NCBI GenBank assembly: GCA_001778275.1
Contig: MFGM01000074.1
Location: forward strand, 14,814 to 52,114
Origin: Candidatus Falkowbacteria bacterium RIFOXYC2_FULL_48_21
Lineage (GTDB): Bacteria; Patescibacteriota; Patescibacteriia; UBA11705; JABHMO01
Direction of reading: 5' to 3'
Length of the DNA: 37,301 bases
Part shown: one piece after another, positions 7,918-26,872 of the stretch
How the letters are laid out: each line of letters starts with the position of its first letter
How positions within the stretch are numbered: position 1 is the stretch's first letter
Notes under the pieces: model-generated
Database searches by the model: none
What the model saw: only the letters and a program-made list of their open reading frames with translations
Told to the model about the DNA's origin: nothing
Translations under genes and position numbers: made by a program

Positions 7918-9087
7918 ATGCCTATTAGGGAAAAATTTCTTGTTTTTGGTAGTCCGCTTATCGTCGATGACGAAATTAACGAAGTGGTGGCCACCATGCG
8001 TTCCGGTTGGCTCGGCACCGGACCGAAGACCGCGAAGTTCGAGCAAATGATCAAGGAATATGTCGGCACCAAATATGCCTTGGCTGTTAATTCTTGTACT
8101 GCGGGACTGCACCTTTCGTTGATCAGCGCGGGAATAAAACAGGGAGACGAGGTGATTACGACGCCGATGACCTTTGCGGCCACGGCCAATGTTATTTGTC
8201 ACGTCGGCGCGAAACCGGTGTTTGCGGATGTAGATCGCGCGACGATGAATATCGATCCCAAGGAAATCGAAAAGAAAATTACCGAAAAAACCAAGGCTTT
8301 ATTGCCGGTGCATCTTGCCGGCCGCGCGTGCGACATGGAGGCACTCACCGCCATTGCCGCCAAGTATAATCTCAAATTGATCAATGATGCGGCTCATTCT
8401 CTTGAAACCGAATATCATGGTAAAAAAATCGGTTGCTTCGGCGACTTAACCGCTTTTAGTTTTTACGTGACGAAAAATATTACTACGGTTGAAGGGGGTA
8501 TGGTGACGACGGACAATGAAGAATTGGCCAATATGATAAAGATTTATGCCTTGCATGGCATGAGCAAGGACGCGTGGAAGCGATTTTCCGACGAAGGCTA
8601 TAAACATTATCAGGTTATTTATCCGGGTTTCAAGTATAATATGACGGACATGCAGGCCAGCATGGGTATCCACCAGCTGAAACGAATCGAAGCCGGCGCG
8701 GTCAGACGAAAGGCGCTCTGGGAGAAATATAATAATGCGTTTCGTGATTTACCTTGTTTCGTCCCGGCGCCGGTCGAAGTCGATACTCGTCACGCGTATC
8801 ATTTATATACGTTGCTGGTTGATTTGGAAAAGTTAACCGTTGACCGTGACGCTATCATGAATGCGTTGCACAAAGAAAATATCGGCACCGGCGTTCATTA
8901 TACCGCTTTGCATTTACATCCATTCTATGCCAATACATTCGGCTACAAAAAAGGGGATTTTCCAAACGCGGAATATATTTCCGATCGGACATTGTCTTTA
9001 CCGTTTTCGCCAAAACTAACGGATCAAGACGCGGATGATGTTATCAATGCGGTTACAATCGTTTTAAATCGATATAAAAAATCATAG
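7918..9087 (+). CDS. PLP-dependent sugar aminotransferase, DegT/DnrJ/EryC1 family, ArnB-like
   Basis: 389 aa. Blocks parallel E. coli ArnB as I recall it: RSGWLGTGPK, GDEVITTPMTF, FSFYVTKNITTVEGGMVTTD (PLP lysine), PGFKYNMTD, HAYHLY, IGTGVHY, SLPFSPKLTDQDADDVI. Confidence 0.88.
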   Translation: MPIREKFLVFGSPLIVDDEINEVVATMRSGWLGTGPKTAKFEQMIKEYVGTKYALAVNSCTAGLHLSLISAGIKQGDEVITTPMTFAATANVICHVGAKPVFADVDRATMNIDPKEIEKKITEKTKALLPVHLAGRACDMEALTAIAAKYNLKLINDAAHSLETEYHGKKIGCFGDLTAFSFYVTKNITTVEGGMVTTDNEELANMIKIYALHGMSKDAWKRFSDEGYKHYQVIYPGFKYNMTDMQASMGIHQLKRIEAGAVRRKALWEKYNNAFRDLPCFVPAPVEVDTRHAYHLYTLLVDLEKLTVDRDAIMNALHKENIGTGVHYTALHLHPFYANTFGYKKGDFPNAEYISDRTLSLPFSPKLTDQDADDVINAVTIVLNRYKKS

Positions 9088-9096
9088 TGCTTTTAT

Positions 9097-9816
9097 ATGG
9101 AATTTGACGTTTCAATCGTTATCGCTTGCTACAACGAAGAACCGTTGCTTGTGCAAAGTGTCAAGGAGTTGCGCCAAGTGATGGATCAGACGCGCTATAC
9201 ATATGAGTTGATTTTTATTGACGATTGTAGCCGAGATCGAACCAAGGACATCATAATCCAGATTGTCAAGGATTTGCCGAATACGCATTCTTTGTTTCAT
9301 GAAAAAAATAAAGGCCGCGGCGGCACGGTGACCGATGGCTTGAAAATGGCCGCGGGTAAAGTGGCGGGATTCTTGGATATTGATTTGGAAGTGCACGCGC
9401 GTTATATCCCATCGATGGTTCAAGCGATTTTGGACGGCGCTGACGTGGCCACGGCTTACCGATTTTATAATGTTGGCCTAAATCCCGTGGCCGTTTTGCG
9501 GCACGTGCTTAGTATCGGATATCGTAAGCTTATGCGGTTGGTTTTAAAGTTGCCGTTGAACGACACGGAAACCGGTTACAAATTTTTTAATCGTGAGAAA
9601 ATTTTGCCGGTATTGGAGAAAACAACCAATCAGGGCTGGTTTTGGGATACGGAAATCATGGCCTTGGCTTATTTTGTTGGCCTAAAAATAGTTGAAATTC
9701 CTTGTTTGTTTATCAGGCGGACGGATAAAGTTTCCAGCGTTAAAATTTTCAAAGATAGTATCGAATACTATAGGGAGTTGAGAAAATTTAAGCAAAAACT
9801 GAACGGCACGAAATAA
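9097..9816 (+). CDS. Family 2 glycosyltransferase, Dpm1/GtrB/ArnC-like (candidate polyprenyl-phosphate sugar synthase), short form without C-terminal TM helices
   Basis: 239 aa. Motifs: VSIVIACYNEE, YELIFIDDCSRD, GFLDIDLE (acidic DxD-type motif). GT2 membership is solid; the lipid-phosphate acceptor is inferred from context. Confidence 0.8.
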   Translation: MEFDVSIVIACYNEEPLLVQSVKELRQVMDQTRYTYELIFIDDCSRDRTKDIIIQIVKDLPNTHSLFHEKNKGRGGTVTDGLKMAAGKVAGFLDIDLEVHARYIPSMVQAILDGADVATAYRFYNVGLNPVAVLRHVLSIGYRKLMRLVLKLPLNDTETGYKFFNREKILPVLEKTTNQGWFWDTEIMALAYFVGLKIVEIPCLFIRRTDKVSSVKIFKDSIEYYRELRKFKQKLNGTK

Positions 9817-9817
9817 T

Positions 9818-10444
9818 ATGATTAATACAAGGTCGGATAATAAGAGCTTTATCTATTCTTCGCCATTGATTTATCAACTTACCATGCGTCTGCTTTACCG
9901 ATGTGGTTTTGGTTCGCGATATGAGGCGATTGCAAAATACATTCCGGATCATGCCTCCGTTGTTGACGTTTGTTGTGGCGACTGTTATCTATTTCATCAT
10001 TATTTAAAGTATAAAGCCGTTGACTATATCGGGCTGGATATCAATCGCTCTTTTGTCAATGATGCTCTCAAACGGGGGGTCAAGGCGAAACTTTTTGATA
10101 TTAACATTGACCCTTTGCCATCGGCTGAATATATCATCATGCAAGCGAGCTTGTATCAATTTATTCCAAATCAAAAAACAATCCTGGATAAACTTTTCAA
10201 TTCAGCGACTCGCGGTGTTATCATCACAGAGCCGATCCGTAATCTTTCGGACTCCAAAAATCCCGTTATAGCTTTTATCGCCAGGCGGGCGGCCAACCCC
10301 GGATCTGGTCACGCCAAGAATCGCTTTGACGAGAATAGTTTGCTCCAATTGTTGAAGAGTCGACAGCAGCCAATATCCACTTGCTTTAAAATTAAGGGCG
10401 ATAAGGAGTTGGTGGCGATTTTTGAAATAAAAGATACAAAATAA
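9818..10444 (+). CDS. Probable class I SAM-dependent methyltransferase
   Basis: 208 aa. The motif-I-like segment VVDVCCGDCY is followed by IGLDIN (post-I acidic residue) and IIMQASLYQF. This is more divergent than the neighbouring methyltransferases. Confidence 0.6.
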   Translation: MINTRSDNKSFIYSSPLIYQLTMRLLYRCGFGSRYEAIAKYIPDHASVVDVCCGDCYLFHHYLKYKAVDYIGLDINRSFVNDALKRGVKAKLFDINIDPLPSAEYIIMQASLYQFIPNQKTILDKLFNSATRGVIITEPIRNLSDSKNPVIAFIARRAANPGSGHAKNRFDENSLLQLLKSRQQPISTCFKIKGDKELVAIFEIKDTK

Positions 10445-10457
10445 ATGAATACCCAGT

Positions 10458-11192
10458 ATGGAACACGATGTGTATGCTAAAATGTTTGAATTTGAAAAAG
10501 GCTTTTGGTGGTTTGTCGGACGACGAAAGATTGTTTTTAACGAATTAGCGAAGATCACAAGCACACTCGCAAATGTCGTGTTGGTTGACATCGGCTGTGG
10601 CACTGGTATAACCATGGAGCTGGCCACGGGTTTTCAAAAAAAAATCGGCATAGATTTTTCCGAAGAAGCGCTCAGATACGCCAAGACGAGAAATTGCGGT
10701 GAACTGGTGGCTGGTGATATTTATAAAATACCCATAGCAGATAATACTGCTGATTGTGTTTTGCTGATGGATGTTTTGGAGCATTTACGGGACGAGAGCG
10801 ACCCGCTCAAGGAAGTTTTTCGAATATGTAAAAAGGGTGGACGAATTATCGTCACTGTGCCCGCTTATCAATTCCTTTGGGGCGGCGAAGACGAAGTGTC
10901 AATGCATAAACGGCGGTACACAAAAACAAGATTACTTTCGATAATAGAAGAGGCGGGTTTTCAAGTCGAACGCACATCATACTTTAACACAATCTTATTC
11001 CCGATCATTGGCGCAATAATTTTATTTAACCGCTTATTCAATACCAGAGCGAAGCATGAAACGAATATGAAACGATTACCAAAGATATTAAACACCGGCT
11101 TAATAAAGATGCTTTTGCTGGAAGCATGGTTATTGAAAAAAATAACCTTTCCCTATGGCGCATCAGTAATTTGCGTGGCGAAGAAGAATTAA
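10458..11192 (+). CDS. Class I SAM-dependent methyltransferase with a hydrophobic C-terminal segment
   Basis: 244 aa. Motifs: VLVDIGCGTGITME (motif I), IGIDFSEEAL, DCVLLMDVLEHL, GGRIIVTVP. A hydrophobic stretch FNTILFPIIGAIILFNRLF lies near the C-terminus. Confidence 0.85.
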   Translation: MEHDVYAKMFEFEKGFWWFVGRRKIVFNELAKITSTLANVVLVDIGCGTGITMELATGFQKKIGIDFSEEALRYAKTRNCGELVAGDIYKIPIADNTADCVLLMDVLEHLRDESDPLKEVFRICKKGGRIIVTVPAYQFLWGGEDEVSMHKRRYTKTRLLSIIEEAGFQVERTSYFNTILFPIIGAIILFNRLFNTRAKHETNMKRLPKILNTGLIKMLLLEAWLLKKITFPYGASVICVAKKN

Positions 11193-11193
11193 T

Positions 11194-13671
11194 ATGGGAG
11201 TATATATAATTTGGACGGTGGTAGTATTTATCGCATATTTGGCCATCCGGTGGCCTTATTTTAAGTTACCAATCAGCGCCGATTCCGGATTCTACGTGTC
11301 CAATGCGACAATCTTGAATAAAAAAATCGATTTTTCCAAAGGCTGGAACGCGAATTATGCCTTCGGTAGCAAATGGCTGGTAGAATATTTTTACAGTTTA
11401 ATTTATTTATGGTTCGGGAACAAAAAATATAAAGCATATTCACGATTGTTTTTTTCGTTTTTTAATTATTTGACCGGAATAACTGTCGGCTTTTGCGCTT
11501 TTTATTTTGTCCAGGAGAGCTTGACGGCTTATCTCGTCGGTTTAACCGTTTACTGCCTGATTTCATCCGAACCTCATTATGGCGTTTATTTTGAAAGTGG
11601 TGATCAGTTCGAGCCGCTGTTTCAAGCGCTGGGTACGCTCTTTTTAATAATCGGCACATCGGTCGCCAATGAATACCTGATCATGCTGGGTATTTTTTGC
11701 TGGTTGGCGAATGCCGTGCTGGTAAAAATATCAGCCTTACTGCCGGCAATCATCGTGACCATCGGCGTTTTGATAGTGAATAGAACTCATTTTGCCACAT
11801 TGGCGCCGCTCATTGCTATTGACATGTTTGCCGGCACTTTGATTTACCTTTGGATTTTAAGCCGGTCGACATTGGGACTCATGATCCGGCTACGAGCTGT
11901 CTTTGGCCATGAAATCGTTGAGAGCCAGACAATCGATGGGAAGGAAAATTTATTGTTTCGTTTCACGCCGTTTTTGCGTTGTTTGCAAAAGACAAAACAG
12001 ACGCTGATAATCATGGCCGTCAACCCCATTATTCCATGTTTGGCTATTTTTGGCCTTGTTTTGACAATGAAAACGGTCAATCCGATTTTACTCACCGTGT
12101 TGATTTGTTTTGCCGCCGTTTTGGCCAAGTTTTACATCAGTCTGACACCGATTTGGTATTATAATATTCCCTTCCTACCATATGTAAGCATTTTTGCCGC
12201 GCAAGCGGTCGTTTCAATGCTATCTAATGTAAATCAAGGTACGTTAATTATTCTCGCATTATTGGTGATTTGGTTCATTCGAAACATACTTTTCGTAAAA
12301 TTTAAAGCTGTCGACCGGCTGGCCAGCTATGTGTGGCATTTTCAGGTTAAAAATAGAGGGGTGGACAGTTATCGAAGCGATTGTGCGGCAGTCGGAATAG
12401 AAAAAATTATCTCGGCTGACAAAACGATGTTACTTTACGGTCACAATGAATTGTATGTGTTAACTGGAAGGAGTTATGCCATTCCATTCAATACGGCGAT
12501 GGGATATATCGCAGATCTTGAGCCTGCGTGGGTAGAAAAATTGCATCGGCAAATGCTGGTCGCTCCGCCGGACTATATTGCTGATACGTTCGGCATCTGT
12601 GACATAATGGCAATCAAAAACAATTTGGGGCTTAATTATCAACAGGTAAAAACCTTTGGCGAGAATAATCAAATTACCCTTTATCGTTTGATTGACCGAC
12701 GCAATGACGATTTCGCGACTAATCTAAACTTTGCCAGTTTAAAAACAACCCAAAAGCATGCCCCCGCAACGCTTGATTGCCCAATGTGCCAATCGCGAAA
12801 TATCAAAAAGTTGTTTACTGATCACAATCGTCGGGACGGAATTGAATGCGCTGGGACGTACTCTCAGTGTTTGATTTGCCAGCATGTTTTTTTATCTGAC
12901 CGACCGACATGGCTTGCAATCGAACATTTTTATTCCACAGTCAATCAGGGTTGTACCGTCAATGAGCGCACTAATAATCTCGATAATCGGCCGCCTTCTT
13001 TGATCAAAAAGACACTGCGACGGTTACGTTTTCGACCCCATTCATGGCCCCTAGCGTCGGCCAATGAACAGAGGAACCGTTTGCTCGATCTTGGTTGTGG
13101 CACGGGGACGAAATTGCTTGAATTCTCTGAGCGTGGGTATCAAATTTGGGGCGTGGATATCAGTCCAGAAGCCATTGAAATCGCTCGTAAGATTTTACCG
13201 CGAGCAAAATTTTTCGTGTCGGAATTAGATAGCGTTGATTTACCCAATGATTATTTTGATTTCATTCGCATCGACAACACCTTAGAGCACGTTGATGATC
13301 CTGAACGATTGATTGCAAGATGTTCTCAGCTTTTACGTCGAAGCGGGGAGCTAATGATTTATGTCCCACACGGTCAAAGTTTTTCCATGCGGGTATTTAA
13401 AGGAAACTCTGTTTCTTCGTGGATTCCTTTCCATCTAAATTTATTTTCGACTAAATCATTGGCGGACCTATTAAGAAAAAATAATTTCAGCCAAGTCAGG
13501 ATTCGCGGCTACTGTCCGCTAACATGGTTGCCGATTAGCATTGTCCAGAGCGGTTTTGGCTCGATACAACGCAGTAAATGGTTAAATATATTATGTTATC
13601 CGTTTGGTTGGCTGTTTTGTCGAATTGGCATGGCCGAGGAATTAGTTGGTATTGGGACAAAAAATGATTGA
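11194..13671 (+). CDS. Fusion protein: N-terminal ~12-TM polytopic membrane domain (GT-C-like?), soluble linker, Cys4 zinc ribbon, and C-terminal class I SAM methyltransferase
   Basis: 825 aa. Amino acids 1 to about 372 are hydrophobic helices, with DSGFY (nt 11281-11295) in the first loop. CPMC (12778-12789) and CLIC (12868-12879) form a zinc-ribbon-like pair. The methyltransferase part has motif I LLDLGCGTG (13081-13107), VDISPEAIE and FDFIRIDNTLEHVDDP. Confidence 0.7.
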   Translation: MGVYIIWTVVVFIAYLAIRWPYFKLPISADSGFYVSNATILNKKIDFSKGWNANYAFGSKWLVEYFYSLIYLWFGNKKYKAYSRLFFSFFNYLTGITVGFCAFYFVQESLTAYLVGLTVYCLISSEPHYGVYFESGDQFEPLFQALGTLFLIIGTSVANEYLIMLGIFCWLANAVLVKISALLPAIIVTIGVLIVNRTHFATLAPLIAIDMFAGTLIYLWILSRSTLGLMIRLRAVFGHEIVESQTIDGKENLLFRFTPFLRCLQKTKQTLIIMAVNPIIPCLAIFGLVLTMKTVNPILLTVLICFAAVLAKFYISLTPIWYYNIPFLPYVSIFAAQAVVSMLSNVNQGTLIILALLVIWFIRNILFVKFKAVDRLASYVWHFQVKNRGVDSYRSDCAAVGIEKIISADKTMLLYGHNELYVLTGRSYAIPFNTAMGYIADLEPAWVEKLHRQMLVAPPDYIADTFGICDIMAIKNNLGLNYQQVKTFGENNQITLYRLIDRRNDDFATNLNFASLKTTQKHAPATLDCPMCQSRNIKKLFTDHNRRDGIECAGTYSQCLICQHVFLSDRPTWLAIEHFYSTVNQGCTVNERTNNLDNRPPSLIKKTLRRLRFRPHSWPLASANEQRNRLLDLGCGTGTKLLEFSERGYQIWGVDISPEAIEIARKILPRAKFFVSELDSVDLPNDYFDFIRIDNTLEHVDDPERLIARCSQLLRRSGELMIYVPHGQSFSMRVFKGNSVSSWIPFHLNLFSTKSLADLLRKNNFSQVRIRGYCPLTWLPISIVQSGFGSIQRSKWLNILCYPFGWLFCRIGMAEELVGIGTKND

Positions 13672-15064
13672 ATTATTGAGTAAAACAAACCGAATATCGC
13701 AACGCGGGCTGATCTGGAGCTTTCTCGTTATTTGGGCGCTTGGCGTTGCAATCTTCTGGCCGGGGGAAGAGCCGGCCAAGGTCAACACGCTACTGGTTGT
13801 GGGAATAGTATTTGTTTTGGCATATTTAATCATCGCCTATGCCGCTAAATCAAAAATCATTACGTCAAAAATTTATTGGATGGTCGCTTTTTTGGTGATG
13901 ATGACCTTGGTGGCGATTGTCTTGCAGTTTGTACTAACCGTTTCCGATATCGGCCACCGCGACATTGATGGCTTTGATCCAATTCGCTATGACTATGATG
14001 CCAAGGCGGCCGTGGAGAGCGGTTTGGATTTTACGGCCGCTAAGGGCAGTTATAATTTTCTTGGTGTAATTTATTATATTGCGGGCATCTATTGGATGTT
14101 TGGAATAAGTACTTTTTACGTCAGCCTATTTAATCTGTTATTCGTCTTGGTCGGCTTTTTGGCGGTAACAAAAATTTTGATCGATCAAACGGGCGAAGTC
14201 CGGCCGTGGCAAAAAATGGCGTGGGGAATGCTGATTCCCAGCGTTTTATATTATGCCGCCCTTCCGTCCAAGGATATTCTTGCGATGTCATTAATAGCAT
14301 TGATCCTGTGCCTCGTGAGCATACTATTACGAAAACGAAGTTTAAAATTATTTTTGTTCTTGGCCATCAGTTGCACCGGATTGATAATGATTAGAGCCAG
14401 TGCGCTGATTATTGTTGCGATTGTTAGCACCTTTATCATATTCTCTGTCAAAAAGAATAAGCGGCTAGTGCTTTACGCCCTAATTTTACTGGTGGTCGTT
14501 TCCTTGCTCGCTGTCCAATGCGCACCGGTAATAACCAAATTATTGGGTGGCACGCCGTTTAGTGTTTCGAAATTGTTCTCACTACAACCGAAGATTAAAA
14601 TGGCGGAGGAATTGAGCGCGACGGGGTCGTTGAATTTACTATTTATGCCAAGGACGTATGTTCAGGTGGCGCTCTTTATGCCCATCCGAGCATTGTTTTT
14701 TCTTATATCGCCATTTCCAAACGTTTGGATCTGGGGCGGATTGGCAAAAATAAGGTTTGATGTTTTGAGTTTATGGCTTATTTTGTTTTTTGCGCCCGCC
14801 TTGATCGCCGCTACCATATCAAAAAATATTCGCCGCCTAAAAGTATATAATTTCATAGTTATCCCTTTCTGGCTGATGATTTTTACGATTGCGACCGCGT
14901 TATTTATTATTCATGAACGTTATCGATTGATGCTTACGCCCTTTTGGCTGGCAACGGTGCTTATTGCGTACCGTTATGGCAAACCAAACCGCTACCTCAT
15001 GCCGAGTTTGTCTTTTATCTTGGCCGGATTAATTACATATGTAATTTTGAAGTTGGTTGTTTAA
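13664..15064 (+). CDS. Polytopic membrane protein, candidate Wzy-like polymerase or GT-C-like transferase
   Basis: The ORF track starts at a TTG (13646). The first ATG is 13664 and overlaps the upstream stop (13669-13671) by 8 nt. The protein has about 12 hydrophobic helices, an acidic/aromatic loop DIDGFDPIRYDYDA after helix 3 and a ~40-aa polar loop (GGTPFSVSKLFSLQPKIKMAEELSATG). I recognise no soluble-domain motif. Confidence 0.55.
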   Translation: MIELLSKTNRISQRGLIWSFLVIWALGVAIFWPGEEPAKVNTLLVVGIVFVLAYLIIAYAAKSKIITSKIYWMVAFLVMMTLVAIVLQFVLTVSDIGHRDIDGFDPIRYDYDAKAAVESGLDFTAAKGSYNFLGVIYYIAGIYWMFGISTFYVSLFNLLFVLVGFLAVTKILIDQTGEVRPWQKMAWGMLIPSVLYYAALPSKDILAMSLIALILCLVSILLRKRSLKLFLFLAISCTGLIMIRASALIIVAIVSTFIIFSVKKNKRLVLYALILLVVVSLLAVQCAPVITKLLGGTPFSVSKLFSLQPKIKMAEELSATGSLNLLFMPRTYVQVALFMPIRALFFLISPFPNVWIWGGLAKIRFDVLSLWLILFFAPALIAATISKNIRRLKVYNFIVIPFWLMIFTIATALFIIHERYRLMLTPFWLATVLIAYRYGKPNRYLMPSLSFILAGLITYVILKLVV

Positions 15065-21988: not shown

Positions 21989-23860
21989 ATGGCCGAAATT
22001 AAAAAAAAGTTCGTCTTTCTAAAAGGGAAGTGGCTGTTGATTGCTTACACTGTTTTGATATTGGCAACTTTGCCGTACGATCTGGCGGTTCGCCCAGCTA
22101 TTCTATATTTGCTGTATGCGTTATTTATTCTTATGCTATTTGTTGTCGTTATCAATAGCCCAAAAAACGCCATCGGTCAGCCGACCGTTCCCGGCCGCGA
22201 CCGATTTTTCTTTTGGTTGATAATTTTATCCAGTTTGGTCATTTTATTCACACGCCTATTACCATTTTTGCGATTTGGCGACGCCCCGCTTGGTTATGAT
22301 ACCGGCTTTTATCATGAACGTTCAACCATGCCTGGTGTTTTAGCCGAAACCGAGCCGTTCTACTTTATTTTGGCCGCATTACAAACGTTTGGAATCGAGA
22401 CGATTTGGGCGATTAACATTCTATGCATTGTGGCGCAATTTTTATTGCCAGGCAGTCTTTATTTGATATTTCGGTCATTGAAAGTTAAACATAATTTTGT
22501 TTTCGCGGCAGTCGCTTTTTTCATTTGCGCGGTTTCCGCTACCCAATTTCACGCTTTTTGGTCCATGTTTCCGCAACAAATATTATCAATCAGCTTCTTG
22601 TTCGCAACCGTGGCGCTGATCTTGCGTCAGTCACCGGCCGCTATCTTGTCCGGCTATCTCGGCGCCGCCCTAAATACACCGACCTTTGCTTTATTTTTGT
22701 TGACGTTGATTATCTTTTTAATTGTCATATGTGTATTAAAATTTTATAAGCGCTTGCATTACGACCATCAGTTCTTGCTATACTCTCTCCTCGGATACGC
22801 TGTGGTTTATTTGGTGCTGGTTGTATTATTTGAAGAGTTTTCCGCCGCCCCAAGCGAAGCCTATCACCTCTATCTCGACCGGTTGCTGGGCGGCATCGGT
22901 TGGTTCATTTTGTTGCCGATCGCCATATTACTATTCCAATTGTTTTGGCGTAAACGGATAATCAGTTATAAGATTTTATTGTTTGTAATTTCTGTTTTTG
23001 CCATGTGGAACTTTTTTTACTTGACACATCACACCGGCGAACTGGATGAAATCAATACCACTATCAGCTTCATTACCGAATATCACGGGTTAGCCAGCAA
23101 TTATCCATTTTGGCGAATACCAGAGATCAAGGGTCTGTTCATTAATGTGAGCACGTTTCGGATGATTAACCTGTTATTTATTCCTTTTGTTATTTTGGGA
23201 TTTTGCTTACCGCGACTGTGGGAACATGACGCGGACGAGGAATCTCTTGTGTCGCGCTGGTTGATGTTTCTATACATCATGTTTCTTCTTTTGCTGGTTT
23301 TCGTAACTTTTCCGTTTATTTACCAAAATCGATTTTTGATCGTTTTCGATATTGTTTTCATTCTCGTTATGACGCCGCCGCTCGCCAGGCTATTATTCGA
23401 CTTTGGAAGGAGCCGCGGGGGACAGATTTTGATTATCTTGTTTTTTTTGATTTTTTCTGCCAAAATAGTGGCGCAAGCTTGGCGCCAGCAGCCAATGTTG
23501 CCCGTGAATGAATATCAGGAAATTAAAACTTTAGCCAGTTTGGTTGAGCCGCGCGCTCGTTTGCTCGCCACCAACAGCAACGATACGCCGTGGGTAATGG
23601 GTTTTTCGAAGCTGATCGCTTTTGGTCCGGGCTATGGCGGTGATACTTGGAGTATGGACGAATGGATCGAATTCTGGCGCGGGGACAGTGATGAACGGCG
23701 ACTCAAGTTAATGAATGACAGCGGTTACTCCAACTATCCGTTCTATTTCTATATCGGCGGCCGTGAACCGATCGATTGGCCGTATCAAAAATTTATTCGC
23801 AATAGCGGCCATTTCGAGCAAACGTCAGAGCACGTTTGGAAATATCTGCCATCATTATGA
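21989..23860 (+). CDS. Large polytopic membrane protein with a C-terminal soluble domain (GT-C-like architecture)
   Basis: 623 aa. About 14 hydrophobic helices occupy the first ~500 aa, followed by a ~120-aa polar C-terminal domain (PMLPVNEYQEIKTLASLVEP...WVMGFSK...YFYIGGREPIDWPY). The loop motif GYDTGFYHE (DTGFY at nt 22298-22312) echoes the DSGFY of the 11194 product. Confidence 0.5.
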   Translation: MAEIKKKFVFLKGKWLLIAYTVLILATLPYDLAVRPAILYLLYALFILMLFVVVINSPKNAIGQPTVPGRDRFFFWLIILSSLVILFTRLLPFLRFGDAPLGYDTGFYHERSTMPGVLAETEPFYFILAALQTFGIETIWAINILCIVAQFLLPGSLYLIFRSLKVKHNFVFAAVAFFICAVSATQFHAFWSMFPQQILSISFLFATVALILRQSPAAILSGYLGAALNTPTFALFLLTLIIFLIVICVLKFYKRLHYDHQFLLYSLLGYAVVYLVLVVLFEEFSAAPSEAYHLYLDRLLGGIGWFILLPIAILLFQLFWRKRIISYKILLFVISVFAMWNFFYLTHHTGELDEINTTISFITEYHGLASNYPFWRIPEIKGLFINVSTFRMINLLFIPFVILGFCLPRLWEHDADEESLVSRWLMFLYIMFLLLLVFVTFPFIYQNRFLIVFDIVFILVMTPPLARLLFDFGRSRGGQILIILFFLIFSAKIVAQAWRQQPMLPVNEYQEIKTLASLVEPRARLLATNSNDTPWVMGFSKLIAFGPGYGGDTWSMDEWIEFWRGDSDERRLKLMNDSGYSNYPFYFYIGGREPIDWPYQKFIRNSGHFEQTSEHVWKYLPSL

Positions 23861-24304: not shown

Positions 24305-26872
24305 ATGCAAAATTTCAATATGCGTATTGCGATCGATACTTTGGCCGTCAATCGGGACGACTTCGGCGGCGGAGAACAGTATCTCGCCAATTTAGTTTCT
24401 GCCTTGTCAGACATTGACAAACAAAATCAATATTACATTTTTGTTTGTCCACAAAATAAAGAAAAATTCGACTTGACGCGCCCCAATATAAAAATGATAG
24501 AATGCGCAGTTGATAATCGATATAAAATTAGACGTATCCTTTTTGAACAATTTTGTTTGCCGCGCTTGCTGAAGGCATATCAAATCGATATTTATCATGG
24601 CCCGAATAACACTTTACCATTATGGCTACCATGCCCGGCCGTCGTGACGATTCAATTTATGATCAATTTTATTTCCCCAACGCAGTTCAAACCGTTTTAC
24701 AAGCGTTGGTATTTCAATTTATTAATGAAGCGGTCTGTCCGTAAGGCGGACACGGTCATCGCGGTTTCGGAAAGTTTAGCAAAAGAAATTAACGGTCTGC
24801 TCGGCGTTGATTTTAAAAAAATACGGGTGGTACATCACGGCGTATCCAGCCAATTCTGCCAGCGGAAGGAACCGGGGGAGGCCGATAAACTGCGGCATGA
24901 TTTTAATATTACCCGACCGTATATCCTTTGTGTGGCCAACAACGTTTCGAATAAAAATTATTGCGGCTTAATCCACGCTTTCGCCAAATTAAAATCGGCG
25001 CATCAAATACCACATCAACTGATTTTCGTTGGCTCGACGGATATCGACCCGGTCGAAAAAGCCAAAACGTTAAACGTTATAGCGGCACTGCCGCAATCGA
25101 TATCGGCCGATATTTTATTTTTGGGCTTTATTAAGCACGGGGAACTGCCGAGTCTGTACCGCGGTGCCGCCGTATTTGCCTTACCTTCTTTTTGCGAATC
25201 ATTTGGTATTCCGCTCGTGGAAGCCATGGCTTGTGGCGCGCCGATTGTTACTTCCAATGTTTCCGTCATGCCGGAAATTATCAGAAACGCCGGATTAAAA
25301 GTTGATCCTAAAAATCCATCCGCAATCGCTGAAGCAATTTATTCGATTATCAGCAATGAAACGCTACGGCGCAGATTGTCCGATCGAGCCGTTCACCGTG
25401 CGCAATCATTCACCTGGCAAAACGCGGCGGAAAAAACTTTGTCTGTATATTCGGAAATATTCGCAACAGCAATTTCAACCGAGCCGCAAAAAAAACAACG
25501 GGGTGTTTTATTTATAAATCCGCCACGCGAAGTTCCGCAACGCGTTGATTATCCGCCTCTTGGTCTGGCGTATCTTGCGGCATATTTAAAACAAAATAAT
25601 ATCAAAGCCAGCGTCCTTGATGCCGCAGGCATGACGTGGAAACAATTGGTAGCTGCCGTCAAAAAACGCCAGCCTTATATCGTCGGCTTGCCCTGCTGGA
25701 CAGTGGAAAGAGAACAAACGTTCATGGCCGCCAAGCTGGTCAAGTCGTTTATTCCTGACGTCAAATTGATTTTTGGCGGGCATCATGCCACAGTTTTTCC
25801 CGCACAAATGTTTCGTCTAGCTGATGCCGATGCGGTCGTACTCGGAGAAGGTGAGCTGACCACGTTAGAGTTGGTAACATCGTTGTTGGATAATGCTCCG
25901 TTGGCCGGAATAAAGGGCATCGCCTATCGTGAAGCGGGCAATATTGTGATTACCGAACCAAGAGAATTTATCTCTGATTTGGACACAATTCCTTTTCCGA
26001 GCTATGATGATTTTAATTTGGATGACTATCTCGGATTACCGGAAACAACGAGAAAATCAGCGGCGCTGATGACTTCCCGCGGTTGTCCCTACGCTTGTGT
26101 CTATTGTGCCGCGTCAAAATTTTGGAAACGACAATGGCGCGCACGTTCGGCGCAAAACGTTTTAGCGGAAATTGATTATTTGTATCGCACCCACGGCGTT
26201 AGGGCGCTGATGTTTTTTGATGATAATTTTACGATCCGGAAAGATCGCGTAATTGATATTTGCCACGGTATCATTAAACGCCAACTGGACGTTATTTGGG
26301 CCGCTTGCTCTCATGTAAATCAAATTGACGCCGAAATGTTGGATTGGATGAAAAAGGCCGGTTGCTATCGGATTGATTTCGGCGTGGAATCTGGTAGTCC
26401 CGAAGTATTAAAGAATATCAAAAAAAATCAAACCACCGCCAAGGTTGAGGAAACCTTTCGATTATGCCATGAGGCGGGGATCAAGCCGCGAGCTTATTTG
26501 ATGGTTGGTAATCCGGGCGAAAACGATAAAACAATAGACGAAACAATTGCACTGTTAACTAAAATTAAACCGCATGATACCATAAGCGGGCAAATTCTGT
26601 GGATTTTGCCGGGCACGGAAATATATGACATCGCCAAGGCCAAAGGAATTATTTCCGATGACTATTGGTTGAAAAACGATAAATTCATCCCTTATTATAC
26701 GGGCGAGCATACGGAAAAAGAATTAAAAAAATTGCGTGATAAATTAACCCATGGCACAACTAAAATTGATAAAAAATTTACCGCTTATTTAAGTTATTTG
26801 ATCCGAAAAATATATTATCGGTTTCCGGTACTACAAAAGGCGCGCGCTCTTAAAAAAAGATTCAAAATCTAA
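24305..26872 (+). CDS. Fusion protein: GT4 (GT-B fold) glycosyltransferase plus cobalamin-binding-domain (class B) radical SAM enzyme
   Basis: 855 aa; an alternative start is ATG 24320 (MRIAIDTLAV). The GT4 part extends to about aa 385 (FALPSFCESFGIPLVEAMACGAPIVTSNVSVMPEII). The linker is ATAISTEPQKKQRG. The B12-like Rossmann part reads GVLFINPP...PPLGLAYLAAYLKQNNIKASVLDA...KLIFGGHHATVFP. The radical SAM CxxxCxxC is CPYACVYC at nt 26084-26107, followed by FFDDNF and IDFGVESGS. Confidence 0.85.
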   Translation: MQNFNMRIAIDTLAVNRDDFGGGEQYLANLVSALSDIDKQNQYYIFVCPQNKEKFDLTRPNIKMIECAVDNRYKIRRILFEQFCLPRLLKAYQIDIYHGPNNTLPLWLPCPAVVTIQFMINFISPTQFKPFYKRWYFNLLMKRSVRKADTVIAVSESLAKEINGLLGVDFKKIRVVHHGVSSQFCQRKEPGEADKLRHDFNITRPYILCVANNVSNKNYCGLIHAFAKLKSAHQIPHQLIFVGSTDIDPVEKAKTLNVIAALPQSISADILFLGFIKHGELPSLYRGAAVFALPSFCESFGIPLVEAMACGAPIVTSNVSVMPEIIRNAGLKVDPKNPSAIAEAIYSIISNETLRRRLSDRAVHRAQSFTWQNAAEKTLSVYSEIFATAISTEPQKKQRGVLFINPPREVPQRVDYPPLGLAYLAAYLKQNNIKASVLDAAGMTWKQLVAAVKKRQPYIVGLPCWTVEREQTFMAAKLVKSFIPDVKLIFGGHHATVFPAQMFRLADADAVVLGEGELTTLELVTSLLDNAPLAGIKGIAYREAGNIVITEPREFISDLDTIPFPSYDDFNLDDYLGLPETTRKSAALMTSRGCPYACVYCAASKFWKRQWRARSAQNVLAEIDYLYRTHGVRALMFFDDNFTIRKDRVIDICHGIIKRQLDVIWAACSHVNQIDAEMLDWMKKAGCYRIDFGVESGSPEVLKNIKKNQTTAKVEETFRLCHEAGIKPRAYLMVGNPGENDKTIDETIALLTKIKPHDTISGQILWILPGTEIYDIAKAKGIISDDYWLKNDKFIPYYTGEHTEKELKKLRDKLTHGTTKIDKKFTAYLSYLIRKIYYRFPVLQKARALKKRFKI

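Follow-up and report, generated by a model that had tools for sequence, protein, structure and literature searches.

The window analysed here, a 37,301-nucleotide stretch of the genome of Candidatus Falkowbacteria bacterium RIFOXYC2_FULL_48_21 (contig MFGM01000074.1), encodes an 825-amino-acid (aa) protein that joins a membrane module with a predicted GT-C glycosyltransferase fold to a zinc-ribbon methyltransferase dependent on S-adenosylmethionine (SAM). This protein is a genuine fusion of two modules drawn from one polysaccharide-decoration cassette, and we consider the explanation developed for it below rather probable. The catalytic face of the GT-C-like module is predicted, on a narrow balance of the evidence, to point to the cytoplasm, and what is new here is this architecture together with the predicted orientation. 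The sequence itself is already public (OGF34302.1 / UniRef100_A0A1F5T5T0, from a Candidatus Falkowbacteria metagenome-assembled genome, MAG) and effectively unannotated, its database label being "hypothetical protein" or "methyltransferase domain-containing protein". Of its two parts, the membrane module represents a sequence family that is new, with a known fold, whereas the zinc-ribbon methyltransferase is ordinary.

The protein is encoded by a single uninterrupted open reading frame (ORF; window 11194..13671, + strand), as proposed in the initial annotation, which was made from the letters of the DNA without database searches. All motifs quoted there were found in their places: ISADSGFY at aa 27-34, CPMC at nucleotides (nt) 12778-12789, CLIC at nt 12868-12879, LLDLGCGTG at nt 13081-13107 (aa 630-638) and DNTLEHVDDP at nt 13273-13302. 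An identical 825-aa product is present on contigs of two ENA assemblies and one JGI assembly in addition to the NCBI MAG, and cluster variants with 99-100% identity retain the junction between the two halves, which excludes a one-off assembly frameshift.

The N-terminal module could be identified by fold search only, because all sequence searches were negative. Residues 1-525 have no Pfam match even at E<=0.5 and no NCBIfam or PHROG match, and neither Pfam nor NCBIfam matches any part of the first ~600 aa of the protein; a profile search of the PDB with the module returned no GT-C protein and BLAST against Escherichia coli ArnT returned nothing. The AlphaFold2 (AF2) model of aa 1-525, built from a 59-sequence alignment, has a mean predicted local distance difference test score (pLDDT) of 93.8 and a predicted template modelling score (pTM) of 0.93. 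When this model was compared with the PDB by Foldseek, ranks 1 to 32 were all occupied by GT-C proteins with probabilities of 0.97-1.00, beyond which the matches collapse. The best match is ArnT (5f15, E=1.2e-7, TM-score 0.56), and the others include STT3, PglB, AglB, ALG9, ALG12, ALG6, ALG3, AftA, AftB, AftD, EmbA, EmbB, EmbC and DPY19. A GT-C glycosyltransferase fold is well supported for the module as modelled. The initial annotation had likened the membrane part to GT-C enzymes, an idea borne out by these 32 matches, and had named a generic transporter fold as the finding that would speak against it; none of the 32 is a generic transporter. It had also failed to recognise the architecture as a described family, in agreement with the lack of any Pfam or NCBIfam model for the membrane module.

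The predicted core consists of seven transmembrane (TM) helices, a large loop (aa 223-269) and four further TM helices, located approximately at aa 2-24, 84-105, 110-123, 136-157, 160-177, 179-195 and 197-222 (TM1-7) and at 270-291, 297-315, 321-343 and 346-369 (TM8-11). The general model of GT-C enzymes comprises a core of 11 TM domains (TMDs), with a large loop after TM1, short loops, a second large loop before the last four TMDs and a C-terminus on the catalytic side, as well as an acidic motif after TM1, a conserved polar or acidic pattern in the TM3-TM4 loop and a conserved lysine or arginine in the very short TM5-TM6 loop (PMC6801728). The module shows the corresponding features in the form of D30, the E134 loop, K178, the loop 223-269 and the four final TM helices. 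D30 is kept in at least 90% of the 59 homologs, within a family motif LPLHxDTGFYV that reads ISADSGFY in the window protein; only one acidic residue is conserved in it, the usual GT-C pattern being DxD, DD or ExD. In the family motif of the TM3-TM4 loop, EPHYGxYFESxEQFE, E134 is invariant and E137 nearly so, and two basic residues, R262 and K266, stand just ahead of TM8 in the loop 223-269.

The likeness to ArnT (GT83) and to the GT-C(A) group (PglB/STT3, PMT) extends to the spacing of TM1-7, which is nearly identical in the two proteins when delimited by the same script (6-22, 87-103, 112-128, 137-153, 162-178, 181-197 and 204-220 in E. coli ArnT; 2-18, 85-101, 109-125, 142-158, 161-177, 179-195 and 206-222 in the window protein). 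In both, the first loop comprises about 65 aa and the loop behind TM7 about 45-55 aa; an aspartate follows TM1, the TM3-TM4 loop is acidic, a lysine separates TM5 from TM6, TM8 is preceded by basic residues, and the TM helices, odd in number, lead into a C-terminal alpha/beta domain. Genes resembling those of ArnB and ArnC adjoin the window gene. However, no sequence similarity to ArnT could be detected (Pfam, NCBIfam, PDB profile, BLAST), ArnT has 13 TM helices against 11 here, and a single aspartate in DxGFY replaces the DxD/DE of ArnT. The window family also differs from ArnT in a reversed positive-charge bias and in C-terminal fusions to enzymes dependent on SAM or on nucleoside diphosphate (NDP) sugars.

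The ~155-aa soluble linker described initially after the membrane helices turned out to be a conserved folded alpha/beta domain (aa 373-505, pLDDT mostly 87-98) without Pfam match, the real linker being confined to aa ~506-527. This domain is present in all stand-alone homologs of the module (513-571 aa), and since these end at the position corresponding to aa ~515, the family unit, as delimited by homolog length, is the membrane domain plus the domain at aa 373-505. A profile search of 1.84 billion proteins yielded 129 representative clusters of this family, and a genome scan with a tighter alignment found it in two species genomes only; the family is rare and unannotated, with the window module as its founding-type member. 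The N-terminal homologs P0002-P0008 (P and L numbers are our handles for proteins and loci) are 28-65% identical to the window protein.

The C-terminal half is a class I SAM methyltransferase, as called initially from its LLDLGCGTG motif: Methyltransf_23 matches aa 621-766 with E=3.8e-23, and Methyltransf_11, 25, 12 and 31 also score above their gathering thresholds. In the full-length model this half has a pLDDT of about 90, with three beta-strands in the ribbon and structural matches to class I methyltransferase folds. The putative Cys4 zinc ribbon noticed by the initial annotation has four cysteines that, among 34 homologs, show no variation or at least 90% conservation, but it is not a separate module. 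Homologs of ~310-320 aa, grouped in more than 100 clusters and 45-50% identical, align with 95-97% of the C-terminal half (308 aa), so that by this alignment the ribbon is the native N-terminus of a common stand-alone methyltransferase family. The longest Foldseek alignments of the C-terminal half, of about 330 columns, are with KijD1 and TcaB9, sugar C3'-methyltransferases in which a CxxC...CxxC zinc domain likewise precedes a Rossmann methyltransferase. A further link to these enzymes is that the extension of another member of the membrane-module family (P0230) matches PF08484, their C-terminal domain. In contrast to TcaB9 and KijD1, to which it is 13% identical, the window protein has no PF08421 or PF08484 match in a Pfam scan and has a different C-terminal tail, and its substrate could be lipid-linked rather than an NDP-sugar.

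How the two halves were joined can be read from the closest relative of the module (P0002, 65% identical, in locus L004). Its membrane gene ends with NFESLITN followed by TAA, and the methyltransferase gene (MQIPCCTICK...) starts in the same frame, after AAA, at an ATG located 3 nt past that stop codon. The window junction reads ...NFASLKTTQKHAPATLDCPMC, in which Q520 (CAA, nt 12751-12753) aligns with the TAA of the relative and H522 with its ATG. By this alignment the window protein corresponds to two adjacent genes joined at the stop codon of the relative; the direction of change could be either fusion or fission. In a second protein, P0133 (872 aa, 29% identical), the two halves are again co-linear with the window protein over 798 aa, including the CPxC...CxxC ribbon, around a longer and different linker, and its gene sits in locus L016 in the same gene cassette. 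Functional coupling of the membrane and methyltransferase halves, already proposed in the initial annotation, is supported because they are adjacent genes in the closest relative and fused again in P0133 within the same cassette. That annotation had regarded a stop codon between the two parts in orthologs as evidence against the fusion. Such a stop does exist in L004 and, as judged from the aligned genes, shows the fusion to be evolutionarily labile, but it does not make the window ORF false.

A stop loss of recent date, neutral or mildly deleterious, after which the two halves would act as separate proteins or one of them would be decaying, nevertheless had to be weighed. It would account for the in-frame TAA at the position of Q520 in a relative with separate genes, for the stand-alone state of most homologs of either half, and for locus L001, in which the membrane gene is followed by a 324-aa gene with no methyltransferase partner adjacent. 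We nonetheless judge it quite improbable. The same architecture occurs in P0133, at 29% identity and with a different linker; enzymes of at least five other kinds are found fused to the C-terminus of family members; the window protein has kept every residue that is invariant in the family of either half; and the fused ORF is kept in several assemblies and strain variants. In addition, an unfused methyltransferase would lack a usable start codon that retains the first ribbon cysteine. Independent translation of this half was considered and rejected: no usable in-frame start exists between the junction and the first ribbon cysteine, and the sole in-frame ATG near the junction encodes the methionine inside CPMC, which is not preceded by a Shine-Dalgarno-like sequence and from which translation would lose that cysteine. 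A candidate split ortholog and a candidate stand-alone ortholog were also discarded. The 324-aa gene of the syntenic locus L001 is unrelated to the methyltransferase half, and P0011, 84% identical to the C-terminal half, is uninformative: its called start is the methionine of CPMC, its contig begins 20 nt before that start, and no stop codon closes the frame before the edge of the contig, as would fit a fusion. In the partial locus L008, where the methyltransferase half has 84% identity, the frame likewise continues without a stop as far as the edge of the contig, which lies a little ahead of the ribbon.

The orientation of the fused protein in the membrane depends on helix parity. Where the initial annotation counted 12 helices, we found 11 hydrophobic helices, the segment at aa 61-83 being too polar: its median insertion free energy is +8.8 kcal/mol over the 59 homologs, with 2% of them below 3, and it is not detected as a TM segment in the family-averaged hydropathy profile. 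In the high-confidence model this segment is the exposed interfacial part of a continuous helix (aa 61-105), which resembles the juxtamembrane helix leading into TM2 of ArnT, aa 61-83 matching its periplasmic juxtamembrane position. No hydrophobic segment above threshold follows aa 367. With 11 helices and no later one, the conserved motifs, the loop 223-269, the C-terminal domain and the methyltransferase would all lie on one face, the odd number placing the D30 loop on the same side as the last two. De novo TM counts on single homologs were replaced by an alignment-anchored analysis for this parity argument, and the same-side claim rests on the parity itself, on analogy with the 11-TMD GT-C core and on Foldseek alignments with ArnT that run nearly end to end.

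The distribution of positive charges indicates which face this would be. In alignment-anchored counts, the side of the catalytic loops carries 23.0 lysines plus arginines (K+R) versus 1.4 on the opposite side (loops 106-109, 158-159, 196, 292-296 and 344-345), a bias observed in 59 of 59 sequences. As a control, the same script recovered the 13 TM helices of ArnT and a bias of the correct sign (17 K+R on the N-terminal side versus 11), whereas the window protein gave 1 versus 15, the opposite bias. Family members have very short N-terminal tails without charge and, in every case, a basic C-terminal flank of TM1, and no TM helix intervenes before the C-terminal enzyme domain in any relative that has one. 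SAM-dependent chemistry takes place in the cytoplasm. Given this requirement, the fused domains with cytoplasmic substrates, the K+R bias and the charges of the N-terminal tail and TM1 flank, the catalytic face of the module is predicted to be cytoplasmic, a prediction to which we give slightly more weight than to its opposite. The argument that both termini lie inside with the first loop facing outward, on which the initial annotation relied, fails on the odd helix count and on the 23.0 versus 1.4 K+R; cytoplasmic SAM chemistry and the charge bias together predict a cytoplasmic first loop, and a device that methylates inside and transfers outside is disfavoured by the same-side topology. The module would thereby depart from the extracytoplasmic or luminal location of catalytic loops that characterises GT-C enzymes.

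The gene lies in a polysaccharide locus of the Wzx/Wzz type that occupies ~36 kb of the window and encodes two UDP-sugar dehydrogenases, a Bac_transf initiating transferase, Gmd, Fcl, a MOP-family flippase, several glycosyltransferases, a pyruvyl transferase, an FkbM methyltransferase and a Wzz-like protein. Loci L001, L011 and L016 share with it a sub-cassette composed of a DegT gene, a 239-aa GT2 gene, one or more small methyltransferase genes and the GT-C-like gene; the small methyltransferase genes preceding the GT-C-like gene form a pair in L011 and L016 and number one in L001. The 239-aa GT2 aligns over its full length with the polyprenyl-phosphate sugar synthases PgfS, PpgS, AglJ and ArnC, with 27.5% identity to E. 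coli ArnC (E=1e-12). The likeness to ArnB, ArnC and ArnT, and to three-component systems (PMC11127046), suggests a polyprenyl-phosphate-linked methylated sugar donor, and by this analogy the product of the cassette is probably an amino- or deoxy-sugar that is methylated and carried on polyprenyl phosphate.

The same neighbours lend weight to a conventional orientation, in which an even number of crossings would leave the catalytic loops outside and the methyltransferase in the cytoplasm, methylation being coupled to a transfer reaction outside by an ArnT-like third component. All known GT-C enzymes act outside the cytoplasm (PMC6801728; PMC11127046), and our literature search found no GT-C enzyme with a cytoplasmic catalytic face, nor this family. 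ArnB-like and ArnC-like genes are adjacent and a MOP flippase gene lies upstream, as expected for an outward-acting three-component system (PMC11127046). Several properties of our own data also weigh against our reading. Same-side placement was derived from parity, analogy and alignment lengths and not from model coordinates, and de novo TM counts on single homologs are noisy (5-12). The full-length AF2 model, built from a mixed alignment, is poor (pLDDT <50 over aa 364-521, pTM 0.52), carries no inter-domain information and breaks the helix 61-105 at residues 75-78; likewise, DSSP breaks of one or two residues, e.g. 277-278, do not distinguish kinks from hairpins and could hide a re-entrant element that changes the parity. 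The NCBIfam matches of the 239-aa GT2 are all far below the curated cut-offs. Despite these points we regard the conventional orientation as unlikely, if the most serious competitor. Segment 61-83 is too polar to span the membrane, and an extra crossing there would put D30 on the face opposite to E134, K178, R262 and K266, contradicting the GT-C fold match. The would-be cytoplasmic loops would then hold the 1.4 K+R and the outer ones the 23.0 in every homolog, although the script reports a normal bias for ArnT.

In the mechanism that we favour, the cassette would build an amino- or deoxy-sugar, the 239-aa GT2 would load it on polyprenyl phosphate, and the sugar would be methylated; a lipid-linked glycan would next receive it from the GT-C-like module, and the tethered methyltransferase would act on the same lipid-bound donor or product. 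Both transfer and methylation would probably take place at the inner leaflet, before export by the MOP (Wzx-type) flippase. The inward face would explain the repeated C-terminal fusion of the module to enzymes dependent on SAM and on nucleotide sugars. Read in this way, the module would belong to the first recognised GT-C-fold family facing the cytoplasm, an inverted relative of ArnT forming an inner-leaflet "transfer and methylate" unit, and we lean, by a little, towards this possibility.

The window cassette, with a GT2 putatively of the polyprenyl-phosphate type and a GT-C-fold protein inside a Wzx/Wzy-type polysaccharide locus, resembles three-component systems (GtrA/GtrB/Gtr*; GT136, Kelly et al. 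2024, PMC11127046). MOP/MATE-type flippases may serve in these systems, and a single MOP gene is adjacent here; unlike in these systems, there is no dedicated GtrA/SMR flippase (the window contains no gene of this type, nor room for one), and the MOP protein may be the Wzx of the repeat unit. Three-component systems also act after export, whereas the present module, joined to a cytoplasmic enzyme, has a catalytic face that is predicted to be cytoplasmic. Two proteins with a precomputed "Polysacc_synt_C" label (PF14667; L011:5242-5622 and L016:3865-4233) were examined as lipid-sugar flippases and rejected, being soluble, devoid of TM segments and 122-126 aa long. They are cupin-like with an HYH signature, so the label is misleading, and may be sugar ketoisomerases.

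TMTC1-4 and PMT share with the module the 11-TMD core (7 + 4), and some members of the module family carry C-terminal TPR arrays as TMTCs do (PMC6801728). The additional domains of TMTC and PMT are luminal, however, whereas the GT2, GT4 and methyltransferase domains fused here need cytoplasmic cofactors. Chain-terminating methyltransferases of the WbdD type, which belong to ABC-transporter-dependent O-antigen synthesis, are a further point of comparison. They are SAM methyltransferases found at the membrane, where they modify an undecaprenyl-diphosphate-linked glycan on the cytoplasmic side while physically associated with the enzymes that build it. WbdD is peripheral, however, contains kinase and coiled-coil parts and lacks a GT-C module, and the window locus is of the Wzx/Wzz type.

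The variety of partners found in the module family raises the alternative of a GT-C-derived anchor, scaffold or flippase that would hold undecaprenyl-(pyro)phosphate-linked intermediates at the inner leaflet for the soluble tailoring enzymes fused or adjacent to it. C-terminal GT2 fusions occur in P0139 and P0009 and, as judged by eye, in P0177 and P0187; P0154 carries a GT2+GT4+GT2+TPR extension and looks like a multi-glycosyltransferase polymerase attached to the module; the extension of P0167 is WecB/TagA-like, as judged by eye without a scan; that of P0230 matches the NDP-sugar-binding domain PF08484 with E=8e-8; and in L010 the module lies beside four sulfotransferase genes. Besides this diversity of partners (methyltransferase, GT2, GT4, WecB/TagA-like, NDP-sugar-binding, TPR and the neighbouring sulfotransferases), a cytoplasmic face would make a polyprenyl-phosphate-sugar donor seem unnecessary, which also suits a scaffold. 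On the other hand, the residues conserved throughout the family, D30, E134/E137, K178 and R262/K266, occupy catalytic or phosphate-binding positions of GT-C enzymes, and a GT2 of the polyprenyl-phosphate type is a conserved neighbour in the cassette; we therefore hold a purely non-catalytic module to be highly doubtful.

GT-C enzymes are treated as an extracytoplasmic or luminal class, a rule that guides topology prediction, compartment assignment and the annotation of three-component systems. If the cytoplasmic orientation is correct, the GT-C fold would not be bound to one side of the membrane and lipid-phosphate-sugar donors would be usable at the inner leaflet; its confirmation would be very surprising to glycobiologists. 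If the orientation is conventional, the module would still define a new GT-C family, with a defined cassette for decoration by heavily methylated amino-sugars. In either case an annotation gap exists, the module family having no Pfam or NCBIfam model and the protein being labelled by its methyltransferase only, and the natural fusions to methyltransferase, GT2, GT4 and NDP-sugar-binding domains constitute Rosetta-stone evidence for enzymes that dock on the module.

Table 1. Coordinates in the window of the domains and sites of the 825-aa fusion protein and of the genes flanking it.
Feature	Position (nt)	Strand	Basis or context
DegT-family sugar aminotransferase, best match ArnB; cassette partner	7918..9087	+	NCBIfam; syntenic in L001, L011, L016
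239-aa GT2; cassette partner	9097..9816	+	Same 239-aa gene in L001, L011, L016
Small SAM methyltransferase gene, MetW-like	9818..10444	+	First of the pair just upstream of fusion gene
Small SAM methyltransferase gene, Methyltransf_11	10458..11192	+	Stop 1 nt before ATG of fusion gene
Predicted GT-C-fold TM core, aa 1-372	11194..12309	+	AF2 model, Foldseek, TM analysis
D30, first loop; candidate catalytic Asp, equivalent of the acidic motif in the GT-C first external loop (EL1)	11281..11283	+	Homolog alignment
EPHYGVYFESGDQFE, most conserved motif of the family, TM3-TM4 loop	11569..11613	+	Alignments
K178, one-residue TM5-TM6 loop	11725..11727	+	Invariant in 59 sequences
C-terminal alpha/beta domain of the GT-C-like family, aa 373-505	12310..12708	+	Homologs, model
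True inter-protein linker, aa 506-527	12709..12774	+	Alignment with L004
Cys4 zinc ribbon (C529, C532, C559, C562)	12775..12897	+	Homologs, model
Class I SAM methyltransferase core, aa 621-766, motif I LLDLGCGTG	13054..13491	+	Pfam, PDB sequence and fold matches
Conserved C-terminal tail, aa 767-825, and TGA stop; no TM	13492..13671	+	Stand-alone homologs
466-aa polytopic protein, about 13 hydrophobic segments	13664..15064	+	No Pfam or NCBIfam match

The gene of the 466-aa polytopic protein follows the fusion gene, its ATG overlapping the stop codon of the latter by 8 nt, which suggests translational coupling. It is located directly after the GT-C-like gene in L005-L008 and past one 324-aa gene in L001-L003, and its product is a candidate Wzy-type polymerase or functional partner of the fusion protein.

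Another large membrane protein is encoded further downstream (21989..23860, + strand). This polytopic protein of 623 aa, which neither Pfam nor NCBIfam matches, comprises about 15 hydrophobic segments followed by a C-terminal domain of 128 aa. Its family is likewise rare and has an invariant PLGYDTGxY motif. When profiles of this family and of the GT-C-like family were compared, the match had a probability of 72.6% (E=3e-5) over 123 columns, from EL1 to TM4, and the protein may be a second, conventionally oriented GT-C-like enzyme and a possible outward-acting component. Used as a control for orientation, its family was uninformative, with 15.7 versus 15.8 K+R on the two sides.

Several other genes of the window, all on the + strand, encode further enzymes. 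An 855-aa protein (24305..26872) is a fusion of GT4, B12-binding and radical-SAM domains, and the following gene (26884..28362) encodes another protein with B12-binding and radical-SAM domains. As the locus also contains at least five genes for SAM methyltransferases, these radical-SAM proteins suggest an unusually heavily methylated, possibly C-methylated, glycan. A 716-aa protein (29083..31233) combines zinc-ADH-like and GFO/IDH/MocA oxidoreductase domains, and the next one (31223..32200) contains the C-terminal domain of D-glucuronyl C5-epimerases (E=6e-51), a family of the heparan type.

The NCBI record places the contig in Candidatus Falkowbacteria, a lineage of the candidate phyla radiation. 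The best syntenic relative (L014, the same locus as L001) is located on a 564-kb contig of an uncultured gammaproteobacterium, and another homolog comes from a contig of 2.5 kb in a Nanoarchaeota bin; the taxonomy given for these bins may not be reliable.

Additional fusions were observed among the homologs. P0137, P0141, P0143 and about 20 other representatives of the module family have a ~100-aa C-terminal extension with the signature YGAGRFT...LDD...DAVVISTDRF; except for that of P0230, these extensions give weak scores to PglD_N, and the domain is probably, from its sequence, a nucleotide-sugar-binding mini-Rossmann domain. P0010, a 771-aa protein from outside the window, consists of a MOP-family flippase (Polysacc_synt / Polysacc_synt_3) and a class I methyltransferase related to the C-terminal half of the window protein, and is thus another membrane/methyltransferase fusion in polysaccharide synthesis. 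Finally, the gene of the module-GT2 fusion P0009 (L012:5333-7363) lies in a phage-like region, with a portal protein, a MazG-like gene and many small ORFs; a Methyltransf_23 gene and an MptE-like gene come after it. This region could be a phage-borne module for the modification of surface glycans.

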